From: Candidatus Kaiserbacteria bacterium RIFCSPLOWO2_12_FULL_50_10
GTDB lineage: Bacteria > Patescibacteriota > Minisyncoccia > Phycocordibacterales > UBA918
Direction of reading: 5' to 3'
Assembly (NCBI GenBank): GCA_001783515.1
Contig: MFMN01000003.1
Location: 1-61,420, forward strand
DNA: 61,420 nt
Within the stretch, counting starts at the first letter, position 1, and every line of letters starts with the position of its first letter. The translations under genes were made by a program, and so were the position numbers. Positions 5,240 to 54,628 of the stretch are shown here, one piece after another. The notes under the pieces are model-generated. The model was not told where the DNA came from and ran no database searches. It saw only the letters and a list, made by a program, of their open reading frames with translations.

Positions 5240-6514
5240 TTAGGAAAGAAGGAAGATTGCGGCAAGTCCGAAGAGAGCAAGAAGTCCGGCAACGTCGGTA
5301 AAGGTGGTGATAATAATGCCACTCGAAAGGGCAGGGTCTTTGCCGAGTTTGTGCAGAATAAGAGGTATGAGCGATCCTGCGATAACGCCAACGAACATAC
5401 CAAACGCAACGGCAAGACCAGCAACAAGACCTATGCCGACACCATATCCGAGCACAAAGGTGATCAGTGTAAGAATGCTTGTATGCAGCGCGCCCTGCAT
5501 AAGCACCGCAAGTATTTCGTTGCGCAATGCGGGGAGCGCATTTTTGAGGGTAATTTCGCCAAGCGTTAATCCGCGAATAAATACGGCAAATGTTTGCGTT
5601 CCCGCATTCGAGGCCATGCCACTAATAACGGGCATAAATACTGCAAGTATTGCAATAGCCGCCAGCGTAGAGTGGAAGAGGGTGATAACAAACGCAGCAA
5701 GAAACGTTGTGCCGAGATTGACAATGAGCCATTTGGTGCGTGCCGACACCTTGCGGAATGCCGAATCAAATGGATGCTCGTTTTCTTCGAGGCCCGCAAA
5801 ATTGTAGAGTGATTCTTTTGGCTTCTCTTCAAAAAGGTCAATAATCTCGTGCGTGTAGACGATACCAACAACACTGTCATCACTCGCGTCGGTGATGACA
5901 ATTTTTTGAATCGCGCTGTTCATGGCGAGTGCGGCTACGTCAGTTGCCGTTGCGGTGTGGGGAAGGGTGTGGATTTTCGTTGTTGCGTGCCCAAGCGGCT
6001 CGGAGTTTGGATGCAGAATGAGCGCACGTGGCTCAATCTCGCCAATGCAGACGCCATTTTTGCGCACTAATACTTCAGGGATACGCCCTGTTTCTGCACG
6101 ATGTACCGCGATGGCCTCCGCAGCTTCCTCGATGGTTGTCGTGTGTGGGAGGAGAATATAGTTAAAATGCACAAGCTCATGTGCTGCTCGCACATGGAAA
6201 GCGGTGAATTGTTCGACTTTTTGTTTGAGCTCACGACGAAGCTCGTTCGTGATACGGGTTCTCCGTGCGGCACTGGTTATGCGGCGGAGGTATACATGTG
6301 CACGGTCGGGGTCAAAATGATCAATAAGTTGTACGACAAATGGTACGGGAGCATGATCAAGTACATCACGTTGAAGCGTCGGGGAAAGCTCGTTAAATAC
6401 CGCCATACGCATTGAAGGAGTAAGGGACTCGAGGTAGGTAAGGCGCTCGGCTTTTCTGTGCGTAACATGCGCTACATGCGTTGCGACAGCGGGGTCGTCA
6501 TGATGGTATTTCAT
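5240..6514 (-). CDS. mgtE: Magnesium transporter MgtE
   Basis: MgtE N-domain, CBS region and C-terminal TM domain (GMASNAGTQTFAVFIRGLTLGEI). The start is moved to M56 of the track ORF because TGGTATACT plus 6 nt precedes this ATG. An alternative ATG at 6571 has a GGAGG site. Confidence 0.85.
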   Translation of the reverse strand: MKYHHDDPAVATHVAHVTHRKAERLTYLESLTPSMRMAVFNELSPTLQRDVLDHAPVPFVVQLIDHFDPDRAHVYLRRITSAARRTRITNELRRELKQKVEQFTAFHVRAAHELVHFNYILLPHTTTIEEAAEAIAVHRAETGRIPEVLVRKNGVCIGEIEPRALILHPNSEPLGHATTKIHTLPHTATATDVAALAMNSAIQKIVITDASDDSVVGIVYTHEIIDLFEEKPKESLYNFAGLEENEHPFDSAFRKVSARTKWLIVNLGTTFLAAFVITLFHSTLAAIAILAVFMPVISGMASNAGTQTFAVFIRGLTLGEITLKNALPALRNEILAVLMQGALHTSILTLITFVLGYGVGIGLVAGLAVAFGMFVGVIAGSLIPLILHKLGKDPALSSGIIITTFTDVAGLLALFGLAAIFLLS

Positions 6515-6520
6515 CCCGCG

Positions 6521-6529
6521 AGTATACCA
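6521..6529 (-). promoter_or_regulatory. Extended -10 box TGGTATACT, 6 nt upstream of mgtE ATG (leaderless type)
   Basis: The reverse complement of agtatacca reads TGGTATACT, followed by CGCGGG and then ATG (6514). Confidence 0.6.
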
Positions 6530-6625
6530 CAGACTTCTTCCAAAATTGGTCCATCTGCACTGCTTTTTCATATTTTTAACCTCCGCCGTATTGTGTATAC
6601 GTCTGCGGTCAAAAATATGAAAAAT

Positions 6626-6655
6626 CAGCACATCTGAACTCAATTTTGAAAGAAG
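6626..6655 (+). repeat. Family-1 palindromic element, right-arm fragment
   Basis: CAGCACATCTGAACTCAATTTTGAAAGAAG matches the right end of the copy at 35585-35704 (about 23/27 by eye). No left arm is present. Confidence 0.55.
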
Positions 6656-6709
6656 TCTCCCGCACAAGAAAAATGCCATGGGTTACCATGACATTTTTCA
6701 ATTTTGAGA

Positions 6710-7303
6710 TTAAATCTTACCAACAAGGTCAACAGAGGGGGCGAGTGAGTCGCTGCCGTCGTCGAAGTTTGCAGGGCAGACGTTGCCGGGGTGTGATGCG
6801 GTAAACTTTGCGGCCTTGAGCTTGCGGAGAGTGTCCTTTGCAGAACGTCCAATTGAGCCGTCGGTGATTTCGATCGTCTTGATAACGCCTTCGGGGCTAA
6901 TCACAAACGTACCACGCTGCGCGAGACCATTCTCAGGAATAAGCACCTCGAATGCTTCCGCGACAGCATGTGACGAGTCAGCACCCATTGGGTATTCGAG
7001 CATCTTCATGGTTGGAGAAACTTCCTTCCAGACTTTGTGTGCGAAGGCCGTGTCGGTTGACATTGAGAGGACTTCCGCTCCTTCCTTCTTAAAGTCAGTG
7101 TAGAGTGACTGCATGTCTTCGAGTTCGGTCGGGCAGACAAAGGTGAAGTCGGCTGGGTAAAAGAGGAGGACGGTCCAAGAACCGCGGAAGTCAGCGAATG
7201 TCTTCGGTGAAATCTTCCCCTCATGGAATACTTCAAACGCGAGATCTTCCGGCACTACTTCGCCAATCTTCGGTTCAAAAATATCAAAATCATAATTATC
7301 CAT
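6710..7303 (-). CDS. Peroxiredoxin (typical 2-Cys Prx/AhpC family)
   Basis: 197 aa with the peroxidatic motif FTFVCPTE and a C-terminal resolving Cys (GNVCPANF). Confidence 0.85.
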   Translation of the reverse strand: MDNYDFDIFEPKIGEVVPEDLAFEVFHEGKISPKTFADFRGSWTVLLFYPADFTFVCPTELEDMQSLYTDFKKEGAEVLSMSTDTAFAHKVWKEVSPTMKMLEYPMGADSSHAVAEAFEVLIPENGLAQRGTFVISPEGVIKTIEITDGSIGRSAKDTLRKLKAAKFTASHPGNVCPANFDDGSDSLAPSVDLVGKI

Positions 7304-14448: not shown

Positions 14449-14607
14449 GATAATAAGGAGTTCGGCCACGATCGCTTAGTATTTGTTGTTCGCTTGCGCT
14501 CCAAAATACTAAGCGTTGCCGACCCCGCCTTGCCTCCCATTATATAACTCCGCTAAAGCTACGTAATATAATGGGTTCCCAGACGTCCTTTTGAGCCCCT
14601 TATCGTC
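14449..14607 (+). ncRNA. Candidate structured RNA/element, tRNA-linked family, copy 1 (convergent with tRNA-Val)
   Basis: It has a terminal helix, conserved hairpin 1 (CGCTTAGTATTT/AAATACTAAGCG), TTGCCGACCCCGCCT, and hairpin 2 (CCCATTATAT/ATATAATGGG). It aligns end to end with the reverse complement of 33181-33354. The strand is inferred from shared orientation only. Confidence 0.45.
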
Positions 14608-14621
14608 TCACGGCGGGCAAC

Positions 14622-14647
14622 AAAATAAACGCGTACGCGTTTATTTT
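14622..14647. terminator. Palindromic bidirectional terminator between element and tRNA-Val
   Basis: AAAATAAACGCGTACGCGTTTATTTT is a perfect palindrome. Confidence 0.65.
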
Positions 14648-14655
14648 AGCCGCTG

Positions 14656-14729
14656 TGGACGATAAGGGACTCGAACCCCCGACCTCTGCAATGTCAATGC
14701 AGCGCTCTAACCAGCTGAGCTAACCGTCC
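14656..14729 (-). tRNA. tRNA-Val (anticodon GAC)
   Basis: The reverse complement reads GGACGGTTAGCTCAGCTGGTTAGAGCGCTGCATTGACATTGCAGAGGTCGGGGGTTCGAGTCCCTTATCGTCCA. It folds as a cloverleaf with a 7-bp acceptor stem and a TTGACAT anticodon loop. CCA is not encoded. Confidence 0.9.
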
Positions 14730-17065: not shown

Positions 17066-17845
17066 ATGATGCATCTTTTTGGGACATATGCGCACGCTGC
17101 AGAAACGGCACATGAAGCGGGAAATGCGGCGATTTCTATTCATCTTGCATCAGAACAACTCGGAACTTTTTTTGGTGTCCCTATAACCAATACACTTGTG
17201 ACAACATGGGTCTCTATGCTGGCACTCCTTGTGCTTGCTGCGGTGATAGGCATGAATGTCCGCACTATTCCTGGAAAACTCCAGAGTGTTTTTGAAGCAC
17301 TTATCGCGTTTTCCTACAAATACATTAAGGAGACCTTGGGTGATGAGAGGCTTGCCGCCAGGTATTATCCCGTTATTATGACCATCTTTTTGTTTATTTT
17401 GAGCATTAACTGGGTGGCGCAGATTCCAGGGCTTGAGGCAATTACCTACAAAGGAAGCGCCTTGTTCCATGCTGGAACTGCGGATTTGAACATTACGCTT
17501 GCCTTTGCACTCATTGCCCTCACCACGATTGAGTTTGCAGGAATTGCGGCGCTTGGTGTAAAGGCGTACGGCGGCAAGTTCATTAACTTCCACTCACCCA
17601 TTGGCTTCGTAGTAGGTATTATCGAACTTATTTCAGAGCTTGCTCGACTTATCTCGTTCTCATTTCGTTTGTTTGGTAACATCTTTGCAGGGAAAGTGCT
17701 TCTCCTCGTGGTTGCATTCTTTGTGCCGTTCATCATGCCGGTGCCGCTCATGGCGTTTGAGATATTTGTAGGCTTTATCCAGGCGTTTGTTTTTGCCATT
17801 CTTACACTTTTCTTTATCAAGGCAGCAACCGAAATGCCACACTAA
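17066..17845 (+). CDS. atpB: ATP synthase F0 subunit a
   Basis: 259 aa, polytopic, with the conserved LISFSFRLFGNIFAG arginine motif. Confidence 0.9.
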   Translation: MMHLFGTYAHAAETAHEAGNAAISIHLASEQLGTFFGVPITNTLVTTWVSMLALLVLAAVIGMNVRTIPGKLQSVFEALIAFSYKYIKETLGDERLAARYYPVIMTIFLFILSINWVAQIPGLEAITYKGSALFHAGTADLNITLAFALIALTTIEFAGIAALGVKAYGGKFINFHSPIGFVVGIIELISELARLISFSFRLFGNIFAGKVLLLVVAFFVPFIMPVPLMAFEIFVGFIQAFVFAILTLFFIKAATEMPH

Positions 17846-17910
17846 CCTCGCGGTTAGACACAAGGGGAAACCTTTGTGTCTGCTCACGAGCAGATTACTA
17901 ACGTATATAA

Positions 17911-18150
<240 letters not shown>

Positions 18151-18268
18151 TTCTTCCGAAACGGGCGAATTTGCACTGGTTTCAGAAATATTCTACGCGC
18201 CGTACATGTGGTACGGCTTGGTCGAACACTTCTCTCAGCCAGCACAACTCCATCCCGTTTAGAAAGAA
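18151..18268 (+). repeat. Family-1 palindromic intergenic element, copy A
   Basis: TTCTTCCGAAACGGGCGAATTTGCA...CCCGTTTAGAAAGAA. It starts 0 nt after the atpE TAA. Confidence 0.85.
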
Positions 18269-18301
18269 TTAGATTGCTTTATTTAAAGTATCTTTTAATT
18301 T

Positions 18302-18742
18302 ATGGATTCTCTCATTCACGCATTTGGTCTCGACGTTAAGGTCGTTATCGTACAAATCGTTAACTTCACCATTCTTGCGTTCGCGCTTGTGTGGTTCTTG
18401 TACACGCCTATTCTCAAGGTGTTGCGTGAACGTGAAGAAACCATTGCGCAGGGTCTTGCAGATGCAGAAGCTGCCGCAAAGGCAAAGGATTCTGCAGAGG
18501 CAGAGCGCCTTACTACGCTCGCTGCAGCAGAGAAGGATGCTCGCGATATTGTGGCGAATGGCAAAAAGGTCTCTGATGAAAAGATGATGACCGCTCTTGC
18601 GGAAGCTGATGAAAAAGTAGCCTCGCGCATTGCTTTGGCAGAAGTGCGCGGTGAAGAAATTATTGCGGAGGCACGCAAGGCCGCAGAAGTAGAAGTTGCA
18701 AAACTTGCTATTCTCGACCTCGAAAAGAAACTCACGGCATAA
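18302..18742 (+). CDS. atpF: ATP synthase F0 subunit b
   Basis: 146 aa with an N-terminal TM helix and a long charged helix, in the expected operon position. Confidence 0.8.
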   Translation: MDSLIHAFGLDVKVVIVQIVNFTILAFALVWFLYTPILKVLREREETIAQGLADAEAAAKAKDSAEAERLTTLAAAEKDARDIVANGKKVSDEKMMTALAEADEKVASRIALAEVRGEEIIAEARKAAEVEVAKLAILDLEKKLTA

Positions 18743-18743
18743 T

Positions 18744-19094
18744 ATGGATCGTCTTATTACTACATACGCGCAGCTCATGCTTGCATATGCGCCTGAAAAG
18801 GTGCGTGCCAGCATGGAAAAGCGCGGGCACGGCAAGCTCTGGAAGCGTACGCTCCGTAAGGCCTTGCTTCTCGCAGGGAAAAGTACTGCCCGTACCGAGC
18901 CCGTTGTTATCCTTGCACGCGAAAGCGACAAGCAAAAACATGCTGAAAATATTGCAAAATCTGGCGGTGCGGAAGCGCGCGTTGCGATTGATGCAAGTAT
19001 TGTCGGTGGATTTATTCTCCAAAAAGGATTCTCACGCATCGACCGTTCCTACAAAACAGCACTTCATACACTGTATAAAAAAGTAACCGCATAA
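18744..19094 (+). CDS. atpH: ATP synthase F1 subunit delta (OSCP), short form (116 aa)
   Basis: Operon position between b and alpha. The C-terminal motif IDASIVGGFILQKGFSRIDRSYKTAL is delta-like. The start is the internal M17 of the track ORF, 1 nt after the atpF stop. Confidence 0.65.
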   Translation: MDRLITTYAQLMLAYAPEKVRASMEKRGHGKLWKRTLRKALLLAGKSTARTEPVVILARESDKQKHAENIAKSGGAEARVAIDASIVGGFILQKGFSRIDRSYKTALHTLYKKVTA

Positions 19095-20665: not shown

Positions 20666-21571
20666 ATGTCTCTCAAACTTATTAAACAAAAAATCGTCTC
20701 AACACGAAAAACCGGCAAGGTAACGCGTGCTATGGAGGCGGTGTCGGCGGTAAAAATGCGCAAAACGCAGGAGCGTGCTTTTGCGGCGCGCGTGTACGCG
20801 CGTGCTGCCGTACGTATGCTTGCAAGTATTTCGCGTCTCAATGAGTCGGCAGTAGCACACTATACGATGCGCACTACAGAGAATAACCGCGCACTTCTTG
20901 TGCTCGTCACCAGTGATAAGGGGCTCGCAGGCGCCGTAAACAGTGCGGTGCTCAAGCTGGCGGATTCATTTTTGCAAAAGCATACGTGTGACTTCATTTG
21001 TATTGGTCGCAAAGCGGTTGAATACGCAGAGAGAAATGGTGCAGTCATTGTGCACAAGGAAACGAATGTTGCCGACAATGTCTCGCTTCAGAATGTTGAG
21101 CATATTACCAAAAAAGCCCTTGAGGCATATAAGGAAGGGACGTATGGCGTTGTCTATGTCCTCTACCAGAACTTCCTCTCAACGTTTGAACAAAAACCAC
21201 TGGTGCGACAGGTGTTGCCGCTGAACCCCGAAGGGCTTGAGGTGATGGTCCGAGAAATCGTGCCGAAGTCAGGAAAATTTGCAGACCGCACGGAAGAAGC
21301 CGTCGGCACGGGGAGCGAATACCTCATCGAACCTTCTGCGGAAGAGCTTATGCCTGAGCTTGTCTCGCAACTTGTTCACGTCGCGATCTATCATGCGCTC
21401 ATTGAGCATAAAGCGTCTGAACACTCAGCACGTATGGTTGCAATGAAAAACGCGACCGACAAGTCAAAAGAAATAGCAAGGTCGCTCACGCTCAAGTTCA
21501 ACAAAGCACGCCAAGCAGCAATCACTGCCGAAGTGTCGGAGATTACCGCAGGAGCCGCAGCTATCAAATAA
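20666..21571 (+). CDS. atpG: ATP synthase F1 subunit gamma
   Basis: 301 aa with the N-terminal IKQKIVSTRKTGKVTRAMEAVSAVKMRK and C-terminal ITAEVSEITAGAAA helices typical of gamma. Confidence 0.9.
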   Translation: MSLKLIKQKIVSTRKTGKVTRAMEAVSAVKMRKTQERAFAARVYARAAVRMLASISRLNESAVAHYTMRTTENNRALLVLVTSDKGLAGAVNSAVLKLADSFLQKHTCDFICIGRKAVEYAERNGAVIVHKETNVADNVSLQNVEHITKKALEAYKEGTYGVVYVLYQNFLSTFEQKPLVRQVLPLNPEGLEVMVREIVPKSGKFADRTEEAVGTGSEYLIEPSAEELMPELVSQLVHVAIYHALIEHKASEHSARMVAMKNATDKSKEIARSLTLKFNKARQAAITAEVSEITAGAAAIK

Positions 21572-21572
21572 T

Positions 21573-21592
21573 CCCATCCAATTTTGAAAGAA
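21573..21592 (+). repeat. Family-1 element, right-arm fragment
   Basis: CCCATCCAATTTTGAAAGAA lies directly after the atpG TAA. Only the right terminal arm is present. Confidence 0.5.
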
Positions 21593-21607: not shown

Positions 21608-22996
<1,389 letters not shown>

Positions 22997-22997
22997 A

Positions 22998-23117
22998 TTC
23001 TTCCAAAAGTTGGCGAATTTGCATTGGCTTCACAAATTTTTACCCTCACCGTATGCTGAATACGGCTCCGGCAAAAATTTGCTCCAGCCAACGCAACTTC
23101 ACTCAATTTTGAAAGAA
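22998..23117 (+). repeat. Family-1 palindromic intergenic element, copy B
   Basis: It starts 1 nt after the atpD TAG: TTCTTCCAAAAGTTGGCGAATTTGCA...CAATTTTGAAAGAA. Confidence 0.85.
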
Positions 23118-23143
23118 TCTATATAGTTCTAAATAACTATTGT

Positions 23144-32542: not shown

Positions 32543-32806
32543 ATGAAAACAGATATTCATCCAAAGGGATACCGTAAGGTAATCTTCAAGGATACGTCAG
32601 CAAACGTATCGTTCCTTATTGGCTCAACCGTGAAGGAAGACGGTAAGGACACCTGGACCGATGGTCAGGAGTACCCGATGAAAGAAATCGGCATCTCATC
32701 TGCATCGCATCCATTCTACACTGGTCAGGAAAAGGTCATGGACACTGCCGGACGTGTAGAGAAATTTAAGGCAAAGATGTCAAAAGTTGCATCTCGCAAG
32801 AAATAA
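32543..32806 (+). CDS. rpmE: 50S ribosomal protein L31 (type B-like, no CxxC pair)
   Basis: MKTDIHPKGYRKVIFKD...SSASHPFYTGQEKVMDTAGRVEKF. Confidence 0.9.
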   Translation: MKTDIHPKGYRKVIFKDTSANVSFLIGSTVKEDGKDTWTDGQEYPMKEIGISSASHPFYTGQEKVMDTAGRVEKFKAKMSKVASRKK

Positions 32807-32929: not shown

Positions 32930-33056
32930 GTACACGTGCGGGAAAACATTTGACAATTTGCTAGATTTCGCTATTATAGCAACACATTCAGGAGACGAAA
33001 GTTTCCGAAATGGTCATAACTGACCGAGCGGCACTACGAAGGTATGTGCCTACCTC

Positions 33057-33129
33057 GGGCCTGTAGCTCATCTGGTAGAGCGCCCCGCTTGCACCGGGGA
33101 GGTAGCGGGTTCAAGTCCTGTCGGGTCCA
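33057..33129 (+). tRNA. tRNA-Ala (anticodon TGC)
   Basis: GGGCCTGTAGCTCATCTGGTAGAGCGCCCCGCTTGCACCGGGGAGGTAGCGGGTTCAAGTCCTGTCGGGTCCA. It folds as a cloverleaf with G3:U70 and a CTTGCAC anticodon loop. Confidence 0.9.
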
Positions 33130-33179
33130 CAAAGACATAAAACCAACGCGTCTAGCGTTGGTTTTATCTTGTCTTTGTG
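33128..33179. terminator. Long perfect hairpin after tRNA-Ala
   Basis: CACAAAGACATAAAACCAACGC-GTCTA-GCGTTGGTTTTATCTTGTCTTTGTG. Confidence 0.7.
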
Positions 33180-33180
33180 A

Positions 33181-33354
33181 GACCCGACAGGACTTGAACG
33201 CCGGAGCCGGTATACAAGATTGTTACTGATACGAAGCTTTTGCGTAGTACAGTAACAATACTTGTCGGAGAGGCGGGGTCGGCAACGCTTAGTATTTTTG
33301 GAGCGGCAGCGAACAACAAATACTTTAGCGATTGTGACCAAGTCCTGTCGGGTC
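33181..33354 (-). ncRNA. Candidate structured RNA/element, tRNA-linked family, copy 2 (convergent with tRNA-Ala)
   Basis: It has a 16-bp terminal helix GACCCGACAGGACTTG/CAAGTCCTGTCGGGTC, the conserved core, and hairpin ATTGTTACTG/CAGTAACAAT. It aligns with 14449-14607. Confidence 0.45.
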
Positions 33355-34198: not shown

Positions 34199-34266
34199 CC
34201 TGGGTTCCTCCTGAATGACAAAAGTTACCTGTAATGCTTTAGATTGATTGGATGGTTAAAACCATG
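34199..34266 (+). repeat. Family-2 element, left-half copy
   Basis: CCTGGGTTCCTCCTGAATGACAAAAGTTACCTGTAATGCTTTAGATTGATT... is homologous to 53411-53475. No right inverted repeat is present. Confidence 0.55.
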
Positions 34267-34302
34267 TTATAAGAAAACTCGCATTGCTGCGAGTTTTCTT
34301 TT

Positions 34303-34472: not shown

Positions 34473-34550
34473 ATATTTTCTGATGATGTTTGGGAACCTG
34501 TACCATAACAAAAAAGATGACAAAAGTCCAGTCGCTCATTTGATGTGGCG

Positions 34551-34559
34551 TGGTATAGT
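34551..34559 (+). promoter_or_regulatory. Extended -10 box TGGTATAGT, 6 nt upstream of mreB ATG
   Basis: The sequence reads tggtatagt, gcaagg, then ATG (34566). Confidence 0.6.
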
Positions 34560-34565
34560 GCAAGG

Positions 34566-35582
34566 ATGTTAGAAGAACTGTTCGGCGTAAGTAAGGTTGG
34601 TATTGATCTCGGCACAACGAGCGTGCTGGTGTATGTGCCAGGGAAAGGGGTGGTAACGTATGAACCATCAGTTGTTGCAGTGTCTGATGACCAGCAGATT
34701 CTTGCGGTGGGCGACGAAGCGAAGCGCATGATTGGACGTACGCCTGAGCATATTCGTGCGTATCGCCCGATGAAGGACGGGGTGATTGCAGACTATCGTG
34801 TGACGGAGGCTATGCTTCGATATTTTTTGCGCCAAGCATGCGGACGATTCTCGCTGCGCAGGCCCGACGTGCTTGTCTCGGTGCCATCAGGGGTTTCGTC
34901 AACAGAGAAGCGCGCAGTCATCGAAGCGGCGCTCAATGCTGGCGCGAAGAATGCCTATGTGCTCAAGGAGCCGATTCTTGCAGCTCTTGGCGCGGGGCTT
35001 CCTATTTATGAGCCGTGCGGACATCTCATTGTTGATATTGGTGGCGGCACGACTGATGCGGCGGTTATTTCGCTTGGATCAATTGTTGCCGCAACGTCAG
35101 TCCGCTGCGCCGGGAACAAAATAGATGCAACGATTGTCGATTATGTAAAGAAGACCTACAATCTTGCGATTGGTGAAAAAACTGCCGAGGATATTAAAAT
35201 AGGTATTGGCTCAGCACTTCCTGTTGAAGAGGAACTCTCCATGGAAGTAAAAGGACGTGATCTCATGTCGGGGCTTCCGCGCACGATTGAACTCAAGACA
35301 AATGAGGTGGTGCGCGCTACACAGAAAGAGCTTCGCGAGATTGTGGGTGCTATCAAAACCGTTTTCCAAGATACGCCGCCAGAGCTTGCTGCGGATATTA
35401 TTGATTACGGGATTATTCTTACCGGAGGCTCGTCACAACTTCGCAACCTTGCAGAGTTTGTGAAGCGTCGTACGGGGGTAAAAACAAAAGTGGCAGAGCA
35501 GGCGCAGTTTTGTGTGGTGAAGGGGACGGGAATAGCACTGCAGCATTTAGACATGTATAAACAGGCCCTAATCAGAAAATAG
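34566..35582 (+). CDS. mreB: Rod shape-determining protein MreB
   Basis: VGIDLGTTSVLVYV, RPMKDGVIADY and DIGGGTTD are actin-fold MreB motifs. Confidence 0.9.
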   Translation: MLEELFGVSKVGIDLGTTSVLVYVPGKGVVTYEPSVVAVSDDQQILAVGDEAKRMIGRTPEHIRAYRPMKDGVIADYRVTEAMLRYFLRQACGRFSLRRPDVLVSVPSGVSSTEKRAVIEAALNAGAKNAYVLKEPILAALGAGLPIYEPCGHLIVDIGGGTTDAAVISLGSIVAATSVRCAGNKIDATIVDYVKKTYNLAIGEKTAEDIKIGIGSALPVEEELSMEVKGRDLMSGLPRTIELKTNEVVRATQKELREIVGAIKTVFQDTPPELAADIIDYGIILTGGSSQLRNLAEFVKRRTGVKTKVAEQAQFCVVKGTGIALQHLDMYKQALIRK

Positions 35583-35704: not shown

Positions 35705-35780
35705 TGCCTTCGCGGGAGTTGCGGTATGCTTTGTTGCGGCGGATTGTCTTTTGCGACGATTTATGTATAATGCGCTAACC

Positions 35781-41082: not shown

Positions 41083-41268
41083 ATGGTAATGAAGAAGCCA
41101 GCAGCTAAGAAGGTTGCAAAGAAGGCACCAGCGAAGAAGGTTGCGAAGAAGGTTGTTGCAAAGAAGGCACCAGCTAAGAAAGTAGCCAAGAAAGTAGCTA
41201 AGAAGGTTGTCAAGAAAGTAGCCAAGAAGGTTGCAAAGAAGACTGCGAAGAAGACCGCAAAGAAGTAG
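41083..41268 (+). CDS. Lys/Ala-rich histone H1-like basic protein (61 aa)
   Basis: MVMKKPAAKKVAKKAPAKKVAKKVVAKKAPAKKVAKKVAKKVVKKVAKKVAKKTAKKTAKK. TATACG plus 5 nt precedes the ATG. Confidence 0.55.
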   Translation: MVMKKPAAKKVAKKAPAKKVAKKVVAKKAPAKKVAKKVAKKVVKKVAKKVAKKTAKKTAKK

Positions 41269-43758: not shown

Positions 43759-43795
43759 GATTATTTTTAAATTAATGCACTATACTCAAAGACTT

Positions 43796-43956
43796 GTCAT
43801 CCTCGGGGTCTACGAAAGTAAGGAGGCTTTGCCGACTATACTTTCATGACAGCCGGGGATCCAGGCTGACAAGCATTGCTCTTAATCCTGGATCCCCGGT
43901 TCAGTTGAAAATACAGTCGGCAAAGCCTCCTTATTTTCATACTGCCCGAGGATGAC
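43796..43956. repeat. Family-2-related 161-nt nested palindrome
   Basis: Arm pairs: GTCATCCTCGGG/CCCGAGGATGAC, AAGGAGGCTTTGCCGACT/AGTCGGCAAAGCCTCCTT (18 bp), and CCGGGGATCCAGG/CCTGGATCCCCGG (13 bp). Confidence 0.8.
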
Positions 43957-43968
43957 AAAAACCTGGAG

Positions 43969-44949
43969 TTAGCTGTTAAGTTCTGATAAATGTTTCTGTG
44001 CATCCGCAGTGGCGATGCGGCCTCTTGGGGTGCGTTCGAGGAAGCCTTCGCGGATGAGGTAGGGTTCGAGCACGTCTTCGACCGTTGACTCTTCTTCGCC
44101 TGTTGCTGCAGCGATCGTGTTGAGTCCGACGGGGCCGCCGCGGAACTTGTGGATAATTGCCTCAAGCACACGGCGGTCAGGGGCGTGGAGCCCGCGGTGA
44201 TCGATTTCAAGAAGGGCAAAGGTGCGGTCGACAATGTCATTCGTGATGGCGCTTCCGTCAAGTTGTGCTAAGTCGCGGCAGCGCTTCAAGAGATAGTTTG
44301 CGGTACGTGGCGTTGAACGGCAGCGGGTCGCAATAGAAGAGAGGACGCCGTTGGCAAGCTCTGTTTCGAGAAGATGTGCGGAGCGTTCGAGGATAGCAGC
44401 AATCTCGTCGTCAGTATAAAACTCGAGTCGGAATGTGCCACCAGAGAAGCGAGAGCGCAGCGGACTTGACAATAATGACATTCGTGTTGTTGCCGCAACG
44501 AGGGTAAAGGGGGGGAGCTCGAGTTGTACCGTTCTCGCAGAGGGTCCCTTACCGATGATAATGTCGAGCACACCAGATTCCATTGCGGGGTAGAGTACCT
44601 CCTCGATTGATTTTGAGAGTCGGTGGATTTCATCAATGAAGAGGACGTCGCCAGGGGAAAGATTGGTGAGGATTGCCGCAAGGTCGCCGACGCGTTCAAT
44701 GGCGGGGCCAGAGGTTGTTTTCATGTTGGTGCCGAGCGTGCGCGCAATGAGGTTCGCTAACGTTGTTTTCCCGAGCCCGGGAGGACCGTAGAGCAAGATA
44801 TGCTCCGCGGCGTGTCCGCGTTCGCGAGCAGCGGTGAGCAAAATGCGGAGGTTTTCCTTAATTTTTGCTTGCCCAATATACTCATCCCACTCCTTAGGGC
44901 GAAGTGTTTGGTCGAGGTTGGACGCTTGGTCTTTGGTAAACGTTGCCAT
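43969..44949 (-). CDS. ruvB: Holliday junction branch migration helicase RuvB
   Basis: [32 protein letters not shown] and the RuvB C-terminal winged helix. Confidence 0.95.
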
Positions 44950-47506: not shown

Positions 47507-47548
47507 ACGGTTTGGAAGCAGTCTCCACAGACTGTTTTTAGTCGCGCG

Positions 47549-47557
47549 TGGTACAAT
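47549..47557 (+). promoter_or_regulatory. Extended -10 box TGGTACAAT, 8 nt upstream of ATG 47566
   Basis: The sequence reads tggtacaat, ctctgcac, then ATG. Confidence 0.55.
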
Positions 47558-47565
47558 CTCTGCAC

Positions 47566-50500: not shown

Positions 50501-52638
50501 CGCTTGCAACGTCGACCGTCTTTGGTATTTCTTGTACCAATATCAGCGGCACGGTACTTGCATCGACGACAGTTACGGTTACGCAGCCGCCAACAATCAC
50601 GGGAAGTGGTAACGGCTATACAAATACTACCAACACGGCAGTCAACGACGGCGGCGCTGCCCTCGACAGCATTACTATTACGGGAGAAAATTTTGGTGCA
50701 CAATGCGATACGGCAAACTTCATCACCATCGGTGGCTACCAGATTCCTTGTGCGAACGTGACGAGTTGGACGACAACCAGTATTACGTTTACCATTCCTG
50801 CATCTATCGACAACCTTGGCGGAACTGGAGTCAACGGACTTACCATCACTACAGGCGGACAAACGTCAACGCCAGTAGATTTTGTGGTGTATCCAAGCAT
50901 TACCTCGATTGCAGCACCAAGTACGAACAGTGGCGCAGAAGGAAGTGTTATCCAGCTCATAGGTTCAGCATTCGGCACAGGCGCAGGAACTATCACGTTC
51001 TCAGGCTCATGGGGGACGGCAACCGCAACGATTCAGTTGACCGCGAGCGGTTCGTGTACTGTCGGCGGGTGGACAAACACCTCTGTCTGTGTGACGGTGC
51101 CCGGAGGTATTCCTGATGACGCGTATACCGCAACCATCACCCTCGAGCGCACTGATGGGGCAGCGGCAACGGCGCCGACATTTACCATTGCGCCACAGGT
51201 AGCAAGTATGTCGCCAATGTCAGGTGTTGCCGGCGATACTATCACTATTACAGGTAATCATCTTTGCCAAACGGGCACCTGTCCAACATCGTTCGATGCA
51301 GGGAATATCATCACGATTGGTGGCGTTACCGCAACGCTTGTTTCGTGGTCACATACCGGTATTGTGGTGACCGTGCCGCCTGGCGTTACGATTGGCGCGA
51401 ACACGGTTGTTGTTACTACGAATGGAGTTTCCATTGGTGCGGGTACGTTGAACGTGCTTAGTACCACGCCCAATACACCAGACATCTCGGGCGTGGGAGG
51501 AACCGGGCAGTTTAGTAATGGAAGTGCTGTGGCAGTTGGTGAGGCCGCTGCATCGTCAACGGTGACCTTCACCGCATCACTGAGCGCACAAACGTCAGCA
51601 ACGCTCGCACTTGAAGTTGAAGTAAAGCCGGTCGGTACAGCATTTGATGCATCGGGTATCTTTGTCGGGGGCTCGGTACTCTACAGTGGCGCAGCGGTGC
51701 TTGGTAGTGTGACGTCAGAGCTCAGCAATAATGCGTCGTATCACTGGCGGGCACGAGTGCGCAATGTAAGTACGAATGAAGTCTCTGCATGGGTTGCGTT
51801 CGGCAGTAACCCCGGAGGCGACGGCTCTGGCGATGGCGAGCCTGCGAACATAGACCTCACCATCGCAACAGGCGGGCCAACCGTGAGCGGCGTCGGTACT
51901 GGCCCTGGCTGCACCGCGCATGATTTGGTGAAGGATACCTCGGCGCGTATTGCATGGACTGCGTCGTCAATTCTCTCGCCGATTGCGAATAAAGTTCGCC
52001 TTGCAACGTCGTCATCAATGGCAGACTTTGTTGAGTATCCTGCATCAAACGGTACCGCACCACAGGTAACGCTCACCGGCCTCGTGGCCGAGACGGCATA
52101 CTACTATCAGGTCATCTCACAAGACTCACTCGGCACCGAAACGATACTTCAGGAAAACGAACCGCACTGCACCTTCATTACCGAGGAGGCCTCAAAGCGT
52201 ATCAACAAGCTTTCCGAGTTCTATATTTGTCAGATGCATGCGCAAGACGAAGTATGGACAGGAGGTTCGGGCGTTACCTGTATTTCAGGCGACGACGGTG
52301 CAAAAACATTCAATGTCTTCGTCTCCGAAATGGTTGCGTCGAAGCCGGTGGTGCAAACCTCCGCATTCGTTGAAGTCTTCGGTATTGCAGAAGCCTCGGG
52401 CGACTTCACGGTCACGGTCAACGTCAACAATATCGGACCAAAAACAATCACGGTGAAAAACCCACAAGGTTCAATACCGTATCGAGTACTGTATCATTTG
52501 CCCGACGGCTACAATCTCGATTTTCCCGCAGACACGAGTGCCTCAAACCTCCTTGATGTGCAGGTGAGCGGTGCGGATACGGTGTCCTCAATGGGGGCAA
52601 AGGCAATACTAAACTATTACTATTTCCCAACATACTGA
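47566..52638 (+). CDS. Giant secreted adhesin-like protein (~1,690 aa): signal peptide, Ig-like Cys-pair modules, IPT/TIG-like repeats, LamG domain, FN3-like domain
   Basis: MKMMRALNIALFSLGVFFMPVSVHA signal peptide. The LamG segment is WMRIFDFGTGTNNYMFLAP..GGWHHVAVTMSGTTGVLYVDGVQVG. ITIAGNHLCQTGTCP repeats and an FN3-like ARIAWTASS..TGLVAETAYYYQV are present. Confidence 0.75.
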   Translation: MKMMRALNIALFSLGVFFMPVSVHAAVQFIGATTGTNSATMPAGVQVGDILIGVGYRGQNATPVGVPSGWTAIDPSSGSNNNSSRIGFIYVTSPTMSLGNWASANKVIITAYRGVRSDYSATNLPNFAGVWTGASATVSFPSLTLAGTTNTSHILWFGGQRATQTFSIPTWSRAGTIRMQSSGTNGSIVAADTNGVTANGSSIFMNTSSSQQYRTYAIEVESATPLEPTMTLAAQNTTVALGGSTALTWSSTNAASCTASGGWSGTLSASGSQTVGPITQSTTFTLACSGAQGTATSSVTVVPGITVDNVLTTDQGFQVYAFNANGTLSTIARKTDFPAGYGVVGGWSSVEIDNVGGASELLRVIFDNPATTTQVQVAWAQAAGPSAMYTLYNADGIFVASGTIPTAGTDGVDDPVTLDAGGQSYSRIDFTANLDRNFIIHSILLPDGLIVGADPVVTSIAAIGTNAAREYTVGDTDGLIQLIGTDFGTTAGAVVFSGTWGTATGTIHTTAEGSCAVGDFTDTSVCVEVPSSIPDDVYTATVTLVRADGAVATAPTLTILPRITSMTPTTVLEGDTITIAGNHLCQTGTCPTVFDAGNTITIGGVTATLVSWSHTGIVVTVPSGISAGVNTVTVTTGGTAITAGSVTFTPPPTLNLTAAATVVALGSATNLSWSTTNATSCSASGTWDDVTLFNGANWVSGQNNGRAISMNGTNQYAAAPTGVVATAGVTTISAWVNMNSLSTWMRIFDFGTGTNNYMFLAPRGGSNVIRFGIRTPAVGEQQINGTAALPTGGWHHVAVTMSGTTGVLYVDGVQVGSNTNMTLTPSSLGNTTQNWIGRSQWPDPYLNGLVQDFRIDTGAFTAAQITALMQGTASGATTIFAIGSGWSGALGTSGTQSTGAITAPTTFSLMCTGPGGSASSSVTVSPVSAATVSLTASPTSVNLNGTSTLSWSATDADSCTATGGWSGPLGASGSTSTAPLATSTVFGISCTNISGTVLASTTVTVTQPPTITGSGNGYTNTTNTAVNDGGAALDSITITGENFGAQCDTANFITIGGYQIPCANVTSWTTTSITFTIPASIDNLGGTGVNGLTITTGGQTSTPVDFVVYPSITSIAAPSTNSGAEGSVIQLIGSAFGTGAGTITFSGSWGTATATIQLTASGSCTVGGWTNTSVCVTVPGGIPDDAYTATITLERTDGAAATAPTFTIAPQVASMSPMSGVAGDTITITGNHLCQTGTCPTSFDAGNIITIGGVTATLVSWSHTGIVVTVPPGVTIGANTVVVTTNGVSIGAGTLNVLSTTPNTPDISGVGGTGQFSNGSAVAVGEAAASSTVTFTASLSAQTSATLALEVEVKPVGTAFDASGIFVGGSVLYSGAAVLGSVTSELSNNASYHWRARVRNVSTNEVSAWVAFGSNPGGDGSGDGEPANIDLTIATGGPTVSGVGTGPGCTAHDLVKDTSARIAWTASSILSPIANKVRLATSSSMADFVEYPASNGTAPQVTLTGLVAETAYYYQVISQDSLGTETILQENEPHCTFITEEASKRINKLSEFYICQMHAQDEVWTGGSGVTCISGDDGAKTFNVFVSEMVASKPVVQTSAFVEVFGIAEASGDFTVTVNVNNIGPKTITVKNPQGSIPYRVLYHLPDGYNLDFPADTSASNLLDVQVSGADTVSSMGAKAILNYYYFPTY

Positions 52639-52753
52639 CGCCCAAAATCGGCGAATTTGCACCAGCTTCGTGAAATTTTCTCTCCAACGTACGTCAGGTA
52701 CGACTCCGAGAAAATTTCACTCCAGCCGGCACAACTTCATCCGATTTTGATCG
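52639..52753 (+). repeat. Family-1 palindromic intergenic element, copy E
   Basis: It starts 0 nt after the TGA: CGCCCAAAATCGGCGAATTTGCA...CCGATTTTGATCG. Confidence 0.8.
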
Positions 52754-52791
52754 TCAGTTGAGTGTTTTGTTACTTAAATATTTAGAACAGT

Positions 52792-53382
52792 ATGAAAAAA
52801 GAATCATCAAAAATTGTGTACGAGGTTCCTGCTTCAGCGGAACGACATCCACATACGGTGCCGTGGATTATCGCGGCGGTGTTCGCGCTCTGCGTGCTTG
52901 GGTATGGTGTATGGCAGTATGGGCCGCTCGACGAAGGGGTGTATAGCGTGCCGGTTGTGTCGCCTGAGGGGAACCTCGGTGCGTATGACGCAGCCCTTGT
53001 GGTAGCGCAAAAAGAAGCAAAGGCATGGCAATCAAGTGCTCTCGTTGCTTCCTTTGAACCGCGCGAAACAACCAACGAGCGTGGCGATGCACTTACATGG
53101 CGGTTTATCTTCACAAGCTCCGCGAAGGAGGATGTCGGCTACATTGTCGAAGTAAAAGATGGTGAGGTTACGTTTAAGGAGGAGGCAACCGTGAACGCGC
53201 TCGGCGTACCAATGCCAAGTAATGCAAAAACAATTGATGAAGCAATTGCCGAAGTTCGCGCAATGTCGGGGCGTGCGGACGCACATATTGAAGGTGTTGA
53301 AGCACTTTCAAATGAGGATGGTGTCTGGTATTGGGGGGTGCGAACAGATAAGGGTACAATTTCTGTAAAGATGGAGAAGTAA
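52792..53382 (+). CDS. Membrane-anchored hypothetical protein (PepSY-like feel)
   Basis: 196 aa with a TM helix (VPWIIAAVFALCVLGYGVW) and an extracellular alpha/beta part. Confidence 0.45.
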   Translation: MKKESSKIVYEVPASAERHPHTVPWIIAAVFALCVLGYGVWQYGPLDEGVYSVPVVSPEGNLGAYDAALVVAQKEAKAWQSSALVASFEPRETTNERGDALTWRFIFTSSAKEDVGYIVEVKDGEVTFKEEATVNALGVPMPSNAKTIDEAIAEVRAMSGRADAHIEGVEALSNEDGVWYWGVRTDKGTISVKMEK

Positions 53383-53408
53383 GAAAGGGTTGCAAGCATT
53401 GCTTGTAA

Positions 53409-53544
53409 TTCTGGATCCCTCCTGGATGACAAAAGTTGCATGCGCTGTTTTAGATAGGTTACTGAGTTAAAACGACGTAAATTTTAACGATATCTCTCAC
53501 TAAAACCATGCCTGTTACTTTTGTCATCCAGGAGGGATCCAGGA
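53409..53544. mobile_element. Family-2 MITE-like element with 28-bp terminal inverted repeats
   Basis: TTCTGGATCCCTCCTGGATGACAAAAGT ... ACTTTTGTCATCCAGGAGGGATCCAGGA (27/28 complementary) flank an 80-bp core. No ORF is present. Confidence 0.65.
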
Positions 53545-53547
53545 GTC

Positions 53548-54483
53548 ATGTCAACAAACGTAAAACTACTCATAAGTATACTGGTATGCATAGCACTCGC
53601 AGGAAGCGTGACTGTTTTTGCGCAGCTTGCTCCGGAGGAAGTGCAGCCGACTGAGTTTCAGAATCGTACGACGCGCTCGTATATTTATCAGGCCGAAGGT
53701 ACGCATACTGCACCTGAAGAACTGCACGTGCCGTTTCTCTATTCGGTCACTGAAACATCGCCCTCGGTACAGAGTGCGTTTATACAAATTACGGGCATCG
53801 CCTATCCTGCGGTAGGTACCTCAACGCCCGGTGCTACCATCTCGATTGATGACGAAACGTTTTCTACCACTCGCGCAGAATTCTTCCGTACGAATACTCG
53901 TCCGCAAGGTCGTTCGTTCACCCTTCTCTATGACGTAAGTCCCTACTTCGCGCAGCGTGTCACGGAACCTGGCGACTACACCTTTGTCTGGGACGCGCTG
54001 TTGCAAAATGTTGAATACGGATCGCTCGCGGTTGAGCTCATCACGACGTATCAGTACGAACCAATTGACCCGCTCATGCCTATTTGGGGCACGCTCGACT
54101 CGGGAGTTTTTGATACGGGAACACCAGTCGGCGCGGGGTATAACGCTCTTTCATGGCGTGGCGCGCTTGGCGGACCATCTTTTGATCAGGGGCGTGTGCT
54201 ACTGCAGCTTGCAACATCGCACTGTGCAAACGGCGCGGGGAATGCGCCTGCGTGTGATGATGGTGCTGCATGGGAGTTCCGAGGCGGCGCACTCTGCTCA
54301 GCTGATGACTGGTTTGAGAAACCAGCAAACACGCCAATCGATCTGCATGCGACAGGATGTTTGCCCCACTTCAATGATAAGCGATACTATCGGTATCGTG
54401 TAAAAATATGTTCTGTTGAATGCGATACTGCGGGATTGTTTACGCCAACAGTAGATGAAGTGATAGTCAACTGGTCGCCCTAA
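53548..54483 (+). CDS. Secreted hypothetical protein
   Basis: MSTNVKLLISILVCIALAGSVTVFA signal peptide. The track start at 53521 lies inside the inverted repeat. Confidence 0.5.
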   Translation: MSTNVKLLISILVCIALAGSVTVFAQLAPEEVQPTEFQNRTTRSYIYQAEGTHTAPEELHVPFLYSVTETSPSVQSAFIQITGIAYPAVGTSTPGATISIDDETFSTTRAEFFRTNTRPQGRSFTLLYDVSPYFAQRVTEPGDYTFVWDALLQNVEYGSLAVELITTYQYEPIDPLMPIWGTLDSGVFDTGTPVGAGYNALSWRGALGGPSFDQGRVLLQLATSHCANGAGNAPACDDGAAWEFRGGALCSADDWFEKPANTPIDLHATGCLPHFNDKRYYRYRVKICSVECDTAGLFTPTVDEVIVNWSP

Positions 54484-54601
54484 TTCTTGCAAAATGAGCG
54501 AACTTGCGCAGGCTTCAGTCGCTTACGCCTTCACCGTACTCAGGTACGGCTCAGTTGCGCACTCCCTCCAGCCCACACAATTTCATCTCATTTTGTAAGA
54601 A
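54484..54601 (+). repeat. Family-1 palindromic intergenic element, copy F (variant interior)
   Basis: It starts 0 nt after the TAA: TTCTTGCAAAATGAGCGAACTTGCG...CTCATTTTGTAAGAA. Confidence 0.8.
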
Positions 54602-54628
54602 TTAGATTGATTACCACAAAGTTGTGCT

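Follow-up and report, generated by a model that had tools for sequence, protein, structure and literature searches.

A ~125-nt palindromic repeat on stop codons of a Candidatus Kaiserbacteria contig and its probable relatives in the Patescibacteria

The DNA analyzed in this work is a window of 61,420 nt from contig MFMN01000003.1 of Candidatus Kaiserbacteria bacterium RIFCSPLOWO2_12_FULL_50_10 (GCA_001783515.1), which together with a further 10 kb of the same contig on each side makes up an extended region of 81 kb. This region carries eight full copies of a palindromic repeat of about 125 nt (individual elements measure 118-131 nt), all of them intergenic, at a density of about one element per 10 kb. 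In seven of the eight the base of the stem sits on the stop codon of the upstream gene and the element is co-oriented with that gene. Near-identical versions of the source contig (more than 99.9%) turn up repeatedly in aquifer-type metagenomes, and the relatives of its AtpD, the closest of which are 87-89% identical and include one from a Kaiserbacteria metagenome-assembled genome (MAG), point to the Patescibacteria, also called the candidate phyla radiation (CPR). Gene identities in the source region were taken from precomputed Pfam lists. Labels of the type L001 denote loci or contigs from other genomes or metagenomes, except for L214, which is a part of the source contig beyond the window.

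Copies of the repeat in the source contig

A repeat search followed by an nhmmer profile built from the copies gave seven full copies and one remnant in the window, with all full copies on the plus strand (E = 2.7e-27 to 4.8e-38), and the eighth full copy lies outside it. The features are as follows, with scores in bits from a covariance model of the family and with upstream genes given as open reading frames (ORFs).

6531..6658, plus strand: full copy, the seventh to be recognized (E = 2.7e-27; 105 bits)
18147..18272, plus strand: copy after atpE (c-subunit, ORF 17923-18150), 116.6 bits
21572..21597, plus strand: right-arm remnant (TCCCATCCAATTTTGAAAGAAATTAG / TCCCATCCAATTTTGAAAGAA), a weak profile match directly on the stop codon of atpG (ORF 20666-21571)
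22994..23121, plus strand: copy after atpD (beta subunit, ORF 21632-22996), 127.5 bits
32806..32933, plus strand: copy after rpmE (L31, ORF 32543-32806), 128.8 bits
35582..35707, plus strand: copy after mreB (ORF 34545-35582), 110.2 bits, G+C-rich interior sub-type
52633..52759, plus strand: copy after the gene of a 1696-aa TIG/Laminin_G surface protein (ORF 47548-52638), 130.5 bits
54480..54605, plus strand: copy after ORF 53521-54483 (311-aa protein without Pfam hits), 109.2 bits
L214 3669-3887, 10 kb left of the window: eighth copy, on the HU stop codon and co-oriented with the minus-strand HU gene

The initial annotation of this DNA had described a palindromic family of ~118 nt with six full copies and two right-arm fragments. 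The family is real and the profile confirmed all six places (E = 5e-38 to 7e-32), but the copies in the window number seven and their length comes to ~125 nt once the outer stem is included. One of the proposed fragments, at 21573-21592, is indeed a remnant, while the other, at 6626-6655, is an arm of the full copy at 6531-6658.

Two of the copies lie inside the ATP synthase operon, after atpE and atpD, just as had been proposed. The stem of the atpE copy, CTAATTCTT…AAGAATTAG, takes in the TAA stop at 18148-18150, and the start of atpF follows 30 nt further on; that of the atpD copy, TAGATTC…GAATCTA, takes in the TAG stop, with the start of atpC 22 nt downstream. The copy after rpmE is followed by a strong promoter-like site at 32950-32977 serving tRNA-Ala, and the copy after mreB, whose stem GCAGAAC…GTTCTGC has the G of the TAG stop as its first base, by a promoter-like site at 35744-35771. 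These promoter-like sites imply that the two copies in front of them close transcription units, so that the repeat occurs both within operons and at the ends of transcription units. After the giant surface-protein gene the stem CTGACG…CGTCAG takes in the TGA stop, and in the copy at 54480..54605, which lies between convergent genes, CTAATTCTT…AAGAATTAG again takes in a TAA stop.

The seventh copy is placed differently. It is flanked by two minus-strand genes, ahpC-like (6710-7303) and mgtE-like (5240-6514), and is anti-oriented to both, lying 51 nt from the ahpC stop, past a terminator-like hairpin, and 17 nt from the mgtE start. The earlier statement that copies are always co-oriented with the upstream gene is therefore true of the six listed copies, each of which follows a plus-strand ORF, but not of this one, and the statement that none follows a minus-strand gene does not strictly hold either. 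In this reversed copy the strand that pairs strongly has the same sense as the minus-strand genes on either side, and the copy could be a 5' leader structure here rather than a 3' element.

The HU copy contains an extra stretch of ~95 nt near the tip, and a copy in a relative (L019 6320-6505) has one of ~60 nt beside the tip; both may be nested insertions into the element. Mechanical listing of ORFs produces spurious or over-extended frames through the elements (17787-18272 on the plus strand, 18269-19039 and 5240-6679 on the minus strand), and gene starts and ends near the repeats may accordingly be mis-annotated by gene callers.

Structure and position of the element

In every copy the inverted repeat runs beyond the TTCTTCC motif into copy-specific sequence, and the resulting outer stems pair the stop codon with the far end of the element (TAATTCTT/AAGAATTA, TAGATTC/GAATCTA, GCAGAAC/GTTCTGC and CTGACG/CGTCAG; also AGACTTC/GAAGTCT). 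The start of the repeat had been placed 0-3 nt after the stop codon; this holds for TTCTTCC in all six listed copies, but the outer stem itself contains the stop. The outer stem is variable and matched to its flank, its outermost 7-11 bp differing among copies and covarying. Inside it come a conserved AAAAT/ATTTT (AAAAU/AUUUU in RNA) and a conserved asymmetric box, with GGCGnnnnUGC (GGCGAATTTGCA) on the left arm and GCAnnnnCAUCC (GCAACTTCATCC) on the right, then a mid-stem that is A/T-rich in five window copies and G+C-rich in the two after mreB and the 311-aa protein gene (c35585 and c54484), an internal loop of 3x3 or 4x3, and a conserved tip hairpin CCGTAY-loop-RTACGG (CUCACCGUA-loop-UACGGCUC). 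The two interior sub-types noticed in the initial annotation are plainly visible in the alignment. As far as can be judged from the sequences, the GGAUG/CGCC box with its bulged A and the GGA/GAG loop beside the tip look like candidate binding sites for a partner.

RNAalifold analysis of a 12-sequence seed returned a single hairpin of 43 pairs, 27 of them with compensatory changes, in agreement with the complementary termini and the central hairpin with compensatory changes that had been reported. When 77 matches to the model from loci with the tip motif were aligned, 87.4% of the cells were standard pairs, compared to 53% for shuffles and 31-45% for slid partners, a very large margin even though an alignment fitted to the model leans to its structure. 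Among these 77 superfamily members 41 of the 43 pairs have changed on both sides, including all 15 pairs of helix 1. The stem can also reach well into the gene: in L016 it takes in as many as 18 nt of coding sequence, ATTGATGAAGTAAATTAAC (I-D-E-V-N-stop of AtpD) pairing with GTTAATTTACTTCATCAAT, and in L017, in L038 and in copies associated with SSB genes it likewise enters the coding sequence.

Palindromes of ~86-98 nt adjoin the tRNA-Val (minus strand; 14590-14675) and tRNA-Ala (33106-33203) genes. They consist of the 3' part of the tRNA, a terminator-like hairpin and an inverted copy of that 3' part, and thus echo the theme of a stem made from the end of the upstream gene; a similar arrangement surrounds a tRNA at L089 1207-1383.

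Relatives could not be surveyed with the nhmmer profile, which was too insensitive on them, whereas the covariance model built from the family detected diverged members in their atp loci. A BLAST self-complement census recovered only three of the seven known window copies, and a custom stem dynamic programme was noisy at scores below about 26. Among 25 distinct covariance-model hits, 21 have a co-oriented long ORF whose stop falls at offsets of -10 to +11 nt relative to the left end. A second test of position started from the tip motif (n = 97 instances with loops of 4-6 nt, contig-edge instances excluded): in 54 of these the tip is preceded, at one arm-length (45-85 nt), by the end of a co-oriented ORF of 80 codons or more, and the mirror arrangement alone is seen in three. 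The non-random distance and orientation first noticed in the window thus extend beyond it. Where neither arrangement is present, the stop of an ORF is often found 100-135 nt upstream, with a small additional hairpin in between. Many Saccharibacteria-labelled MAGs (L143, L164, L168, L169, L189, L200) have a small conserved hairpin, GGGCAAAGCCC or CGGCAGAGCCG, preceding the element, and the ORF stop at these loci is 100-135 nt from the tip and not one arm-length. Offsets of the stem base were read from antisense folds, those from sense folds being unreliable as internal loops interrupt the outward walk; pairing begins within the stop codon or the ORF in 34 of 60 folds and 0-10 nt past it in a further 12.

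The copy after HU bears on what determines orientation. It is co-oriented with a minus-strand gene while the GC skew stays positive on the plus strand across the region; since it follows a lagging-strand gene at unchanged skew, orientation appears to be set by the gene, that is by transcription or translation, and not by the replication strand. Orientation by replication, as in IS200/IS605-like elements, is rejected on this one clear case. When gene and replication were compared in 8-kb loci, three cases tracked the minority-strand gene and two the local majority strand.

Spread, selection and turnover

The strict pattern for the sub-family of the window has only six matches in two large collections, of which the two in species genomes are Patescibacteria MAGs and the other four are unlabelled metagenome contigs. 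Exact-pattern scans show the family to be almost confined to Patescibacteria. The tip motif CTCACCGTAT-N4-7-ATACGGCTC matches at least 119 loci, and among those listed over half are titled Patescibacteria or 'Saccharibacteria', with a few other phylum labels; the hosts named include Kaiser-, Lloyd-, Campbell-, Kerfeld-, Uhr- and Peregrinibacteria. The conserved boxes are common to several Patescibacteria classes, and on this sequence evidence the family is taken to belong to a Patescibacteria-wide superfamily of ~125-nt long-hairpin intergenic repeats. Deltaproteobacteria-labelled groundwater MAGs contain many copies of a different palindrome of ~125-150 nt, ACAAACCTGCGATTTGCC…GGCAGGCAACTTGCAGGTTT, with the same tip motif and a 7-nt loop (L101, L105, L110-L112, L124, L127, L129, L145, L148, L152, L157, L160, L173, L178). 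These were not counted as members, as they score 22-39 bits against the model and follow no stop rule; they may be a distant relative or the result of horizontal transfer or convergence.

A search of the whole window against Rfam release 15 at gathering thresholds returned four tRNAs only and no family match to the element. A permissive search with one copy gave weak matches resembling miRNA precursors, at 15-23 bits against thresholds of 48-92 and all on the minus strand. No earlier description of a comparable element was found in the literature searched for Patescibacteria and CPR. A match to a REP or MITE (miniature inverted-repeat transposable element) class already described, which would have counted against the reading in the initial annotation, did not come out of these searches of Rfam and the literature.

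The genes upstream of the repeat form a recognizable set. In the source genome they encode HU, AtpE, AtpD, L31, MreB, the giant surface protein and the 311-aa protein, with AhpC beside the reversed copy; elsewhere they encode S7 (twice), S10 (twice), S15 (twice), S12, S18, L31, L7/L12, NusG, KhpA, SSB (four times), AtpE (twice) and AhpC, ten of these identities being confirmed with Pfam. The same gene ends, those of atpE, atpD, SSB, S7, S10, S15 and L31, are occupied repeatedly across lineages. The upstream products are abundant proteins, and at many of the junctions (c to b subunit, beta to epsilon subunit, the ends of ribosomal-protein clusters) expression must drop for the next gene. The rplL-rpoB and rpsO-pnp junctions of E. 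coli carry attenuators or processing hairpins.

Selection on the element was assessed in L003, a metagenomic contig which is syntenic with positions 51734-54729 of the window at ~78% nucleotide identity; a strain comparison of L007-L014 was uninformative as these are more than 99.9% identical. The ortholog in L003 of the copy after the giant surface-protein gene is identical at 111 of 126 positions (88%). In the three flanking genes the four-fold synonymous sites are only 39-55% identical, and hence saturated, compared to 87-93% for first and second codon positions, and the spacer downstream of the ortholog barely aligns. Being 88% identical where synonymous sites are saturated, the element is under purifying selection, and two compensatory double changes separate the outer stems of the two copies. 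Conservation of this kind, to judge from the sequences, is unlike that of a decaying insertion.

Other sites have turned over. The site of the copy c54484 is empty in L003, where the same V-N-W-S-P end and TAA are followed by an unrelated spacer of 84 nt. The atpE and atpD sites are occupied in L015, L016, L017, L019, L023, L024, L026 and L038 and reduced to 12-28 nt in L018, L019, L020, L022, L027 and L071. Copies within a genome are 57-82% identical, compared to 40-58% for copies at the same site in different genomes; each lineage thus has its own consensus, which implies spread or replacement within lineages, homogenization, or co-evolution with a shared partner. Adjacent or tandem copies are present in L002 and L005. 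One-arm remnants and adjacent partial copies were also seen in relatives (L003 1722-1758, L005 2191-2228, L002 1856-1882), right after stop codons or beside full copies, which suggests that elements decay by the loss of one arm through deletion.

The mode of insertion has left few traces. No direct target-site duplication beyond the stems was found in the window copies, and none could be aligned between the filled site of the window and the empty site of L003. A TA duplication, as for Tc1/IS630-type MITEs, was considered and rejected: the TA…TA seen in four of the seven copies arises from the stop codon and the sequence complementary to it, and no TA is present in the copy on a TGA stop. The genes called over the 81 kb of source sequence include neither a transposase nor a RAYT gene. 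An element that supplies the stop codon is likewise ruled out by the empty allele of L003 with its identical C-terminus and TAA, and AtpD C-termini are alike at occupied and unoccupied sites. An insertion mechanism that recognizes translation stops, one of the two explanations offered in the initial annotation, finds no support: no target-site duplication and no transposase in the 81 kb were found, and the stop codon already stands in the empty allele. Placement on the stop can be put down more simply to intergenic gaps of only 12-28 nt in which the start region of the next gene must stay free, the stop codon then being the only place where an insertion is tolerated; no mechanism that recognizes stops is needed.

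Two further repeats in the window are separate from this family. A second, unrelated palindromic family with GGATCC and GATGACAAAAG is found at 43779-43973, 53409-53544, 34200-34267 and 43863-43896; the first of these, by a ruvB-like gene, is a near-perfect palindrome of 195 nt which folds about equally well on both strands (-113 and -126 kcal/mol). An ORF of 61 aa at 41083-41268, without a Pfam hit, is made almost entirely of KKxAKK-type repeats (MVMKKPAAKKVAKKAPAKK…); it resembles a histone-H1-like basic protein and explains a tandem repeat of 12/15/27 nt at 41092-41265.

Strand asymmetry and possible roles of the hairpin

Our tentative preference is for an ERIC/REP-like hairpin which would be co-transcribed with the gene in front of it and act as a 3' stabilizer or processing module. 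The location of two copies in the atp operon implies co-transcription with the flanking genes. As part of the mRNA of the upstream gene, the hairpin would obstruct 3'-exonucleases at the 3' boundary of the gene, provide a site for processing there, or both, and the abundant upstream product (c-subunit, beta subunit, ribosomal proteins, SSB, HU, MreB) would thereby be expressed above the next gene of the operon. As the base of the stem contains the stop codon, the outer stem would have to be opened by a ribosome that terminates there; its melting may free the A/U-rich 3' arm and so form a translation-coupled switch of the type proposed for ERIC. Copies would have been spread or homogenized within genomes by some route. 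This explanation fits the set of genes, the operon positions, the purifying selection, the orientation that follows the gene and the embedded stop. We hold it with restraint because transcription, 3' ends and the effect on stability are deduced from sequence and because it does not predict the strand asymmetry described below.

The closest match as a working comparison is the 127-bp ERIC, or IRU, of enterobacteria, which is of similar size, intergenic and multi-copy and forms one long imperfect hairpin. ERIC elements are co-transcribed with their flanking genes and have an orientation-dependent, ribosome-linked effect on mRNA stability, the proposal being that translating ribosomes melt the structure and thereby uncover a nuclease site (PMC2229807, Delihas). 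The present element differs from ERIC in four respects, namely its host, the embedding of the stop codon, the near-fixed orientation and the strand asymmetry. It belongs to another phylum, no relationship was detected in the libraries searched, and the two are set side by side by description; ERIC is found in either orientation, and an embedded stop codon is not among its described features, whereas here the base of the stem is tailored to each gene end, orientation is near-fixed and the better strand is antisense to the upstream gene. In addition, the reported effect of ERIC is to destabilize upstream transcripts, while the gene set found here suggests stabilization.

Like the present repeat, the REP and BIME sequences of E. 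coli are palindromes outside genes, located at gene 3' ends within operons. They act as 3' mRNA stabilizers (malE-malF), protecting the upstream mRNA from 3' exonucleases and setting differential expression, and within about 15 nt of a stop codon they modulate translation, their closeness to the stop affecting the terminating ribosome. REPs are 20-40 nt with GTAG or CGTC tags (PMC3733652), whereas the element described here is one continuous hairpin of 118-131 nt with variable ends and no conserved tag. The element is the same kind of sequence as the REP, ERIC, REPIN and MITE-type intergenic palindromes, yet it departs from a REP, a REPIN or a MITE in those defining features that could be compared.

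Several observations weigh against a simple mRNA hairpin. All seven window copies fold better antisense, at -59 to -69 kcal/mol compared to -40 to -52 kcal/mol in the sense direction, and the antisense strand is more stable in 97 of the 105 tip-defined elements of other genomes, with a mean difference of -11.5 kcal/mol. In an alignment of 74 sequences, G·U and A·C cells stand at 188:65 on the antisense strand. The asymmetry opposes the background skew, and would not be expected from plain selection for a hairpin in the mRNA. The copy at 6531-6658 is reversed, and 40 of the 97 tip-motif instances elsewhere are not at a stop codon (100-135 nt away or with no nearby ORF). The suggestion of a function in the 3' untranslated region, the other explanation in the initial annotation, gains indirect support from the conservation of the ortholog, the recurrent gene ends and the orientation that follows the gene, but its simple version does not fit the better antisense pairing, the lack of U-tracts and the sites internal to operons.

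The asymmetry is a property of the family as a whole. The atp-site element of every relative likewise folds better antisense, while random windows of the same loci are unbiased (23/58, mean +2.4). G·U pairs number 0-1 in the sense folds of the window copies and 4-8 in their antisense folds. The antisense folds have uninterrupted helices of up to 18 bp and 45-54 pairs, whereas the sense folds are broken by C·A and pyrimidine mismatches, and purine-rich non-canonical pairs (the GGA/GAG loop beside the tip) are found on the antisense strand only. The coding strand is G-rich, with an overall skew of +0.05 and with third positions of minus-strand genes read on the plus strand at +0.26 to +0.40, while the elements are C-rich on the coding strand (skew -0.20). 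A mutational skew would push the opposite way, and mutation or composition skew is thereby ruled out as the cause. Two readings can be given. Either pairing has been selected on the antisense strand, as RNA or as single-stranded DNA, or mismatches have been selected in the sense RNA, which might keep it openable by the ribosome or polymerase or make it a poor substrate for RNase III; transitions being the easiest route to a C·A mismatch in the sense RNA, the antisense G·U pairs would in the latter case be a by-product.

The alternative that survives best is a selfish mobile hairpin whose active form is antisense (single-stranded DNA, or cDNA or RNA), like REPINs or IS200/IS605-type elements, which we consider doubtful though realistic. 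Mobility would here select for antisense pairing, the orientation rule would follow from the purging of copies that put a near-perfect hairpin into mRNA, and the stop codon would be the only harmless point of insertion in gaps of 12-28 nt. The family-wide antisense pairing in opposition to the background skew speaks for it, as do the consensus specific to each genome, the presence/absence polymorphism and remnants, the adjacent or tandem copies and those with nested or inserted sequence (the HU copy and L019), and the reversed copy behind a terminator-like hairpin, which may escape read-through. REPINs, too, are hairpins with common compensatory changes that may fold as single-stranded DNA or mRNA, and they form hairpins of about 100 nt with conserved arms, a variable spacer and a sequence population of their own in each genome (PMC3116915); the present repeat has conserved arm boxes, GGCGAATTTGCA and GCAACTTCATCC, and compensatory changes, but its arms have no small palindromes of their own and its centre is a conserved hairpin and not a variable spacer. 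Neither the conserved tip hairpin nor the flank-matched outer stem has a REPIN counterpart; unlike a REPIN-RAYT system the repeat has a fixed and not a random orientation on stop codons, and no RAYT-like gene is among those called in the 81 kb.

MITE-type elements such as Correia or NEMIS of Neisseria and RUP are small, non-coding and multi-copy, with inverted termini, fold as RNA and can affect neighbouring transcripts (PMC2229807). Presence/absence polymorphism between relatives (at the c54484, atpE and atpD sites) is a likeness to them, but the outermost bases of the present repeat vary by copy (TAATTCTT, TAGATTC, GCAGAAC, CTGACG, AGACTTC) and there is no duplication. MITEs have conserved terminal inverted repeats for the transposase and target-site duplications (TA for Correia). 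The variable, flank-matched outermost 7-11 bp are thus unlike terminal repeats bound by a transposase, which together with the lack of a duplication and of any transposase or RAYT gene called in the 81 kb counts against selfish mobility. Strong purifying selection at host level on an orthologous copy, which would be unusual for an individual selfish copy, also counts against it, as do the enrichment after highly expressed genes and the occupation of the same gene ends in many lineages. Elements of the IS200/IS605 type insert into the lagging-strand template, whereas orientation follows the gene here and not replication.

A related proposal, which we place on the unlikely side, takes the antisense-favoured pairing as the main clue and sees a new class of gene-end element, a domesticated mobile hairpin that would recognize or re-create translation stops throughout the Patescibacteria. 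The form under selection would be an antisense RNA, a structure of the template strand, or a cDNA or single-stranded DNA, and copying would invert the last codons and the stop of the target into the outer stem; the same copying process might lie behind the inverted tRNA 3' ends at tRNA-Val and tRNA-Ala.

The element might instead guard against antisense transcription, a transcript of the antisense strand folding into a near-perfect duplex of ~50 bp that would be a target for RNase III cleavage or bring the polymerase to a halt, with the gene shielded from antisense interference and the mismatched sense version escaping cleavage. The long antisense helices set against broken-up sense folds, the purine-rich non-canonical pairs confined to the antisense strand and the location at the exact 3' boundary of highly expressed genes would suit such a role. 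It is nevertheless decidedly improbable, since a weak test found no consistent antisense promoter-like site downstream of the copies, no U-tract follows the antisense hairpin, the atpE-atpF and atpD-atpC copies would shield one operon gene only, and the inclusion of the stop codon in the stem is left unexplained. An independent antisense gene was rejected as no consistent promoter was found, again in a weak test.

It is very unlikely that these are ordinary intrinsic (bidirectional) terminators which only seem to form a repeat family. Their location is indeed at gene 3' ends, a new promoter comes after two of them, and other Patescibacteria have symmetric terminator-like palindromes after stop codons. 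However, no terminator-like call and no U-tract was found at any window copy on either strand, the right flanks are without a T-run, and two copies are inside the ATP synthase operon; the absence of U-tracts and the copies inside operons together argue that these are not ordinary terminators or attenuators. A length of 125 nt with boxes conserved across Patescibacteria classes moreover exceeds what a terminator needs, and the elements are strand-asymmetric, whereas true terminator-like palindromes fold equally on both strands. Hardly credible, finally, are recombination sites like integron attC, which are imperfect palindromes of 60-140 nt after ORFs, co-oriented and functional on one strand only: the resemblance of ~120-nt imperfect palindromes that follow stops, share an orientation and fold better on one strand is superficial, and although there is a gene for a tyrosine recombinase some 10 kb away from the window, it looks by its domains like the usual Xer type and no integron integrase is among the genes called in the 81 kb, the genes in front of the copies are not cassettes but belong to the housekeeping core and stand in conserved synteny (atp operon, rpmE, mreB, hupA, ribosomal protein operons), the copies are scattered without an array, and the ends have variable outermost bases and no conserved core site of the GTTRRRY type.

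The genomes of Patescibacteria rank among the smallest and most streamlined of all bacteria and are known for having almost no repeats, and to our knowledge almost nothing has been established about gene regulation in these organisms. The interest of the present repeat is that it is phylum-wide and under selection in genomes otherwise nearly free of repeats. On the co-transcribed 3' hairpin that we tentatively prefer, the element is likely a part of the conserved post-transcriptional machinery of the radiation, marking junctions that need unequal expression, such as those between the c and b subunits, the beta and epsilon subunits, S7 and the next gene, and L7/L12 and the next gene. Annotation of the elements with the covariance model would be feasible for CPR genomes by the thousand, in which gene callers at present give spurious ORFs, and the antisense pairing bias, if explained, could reveal a new route of repeat spread or a strand-selective RNA surveillance.

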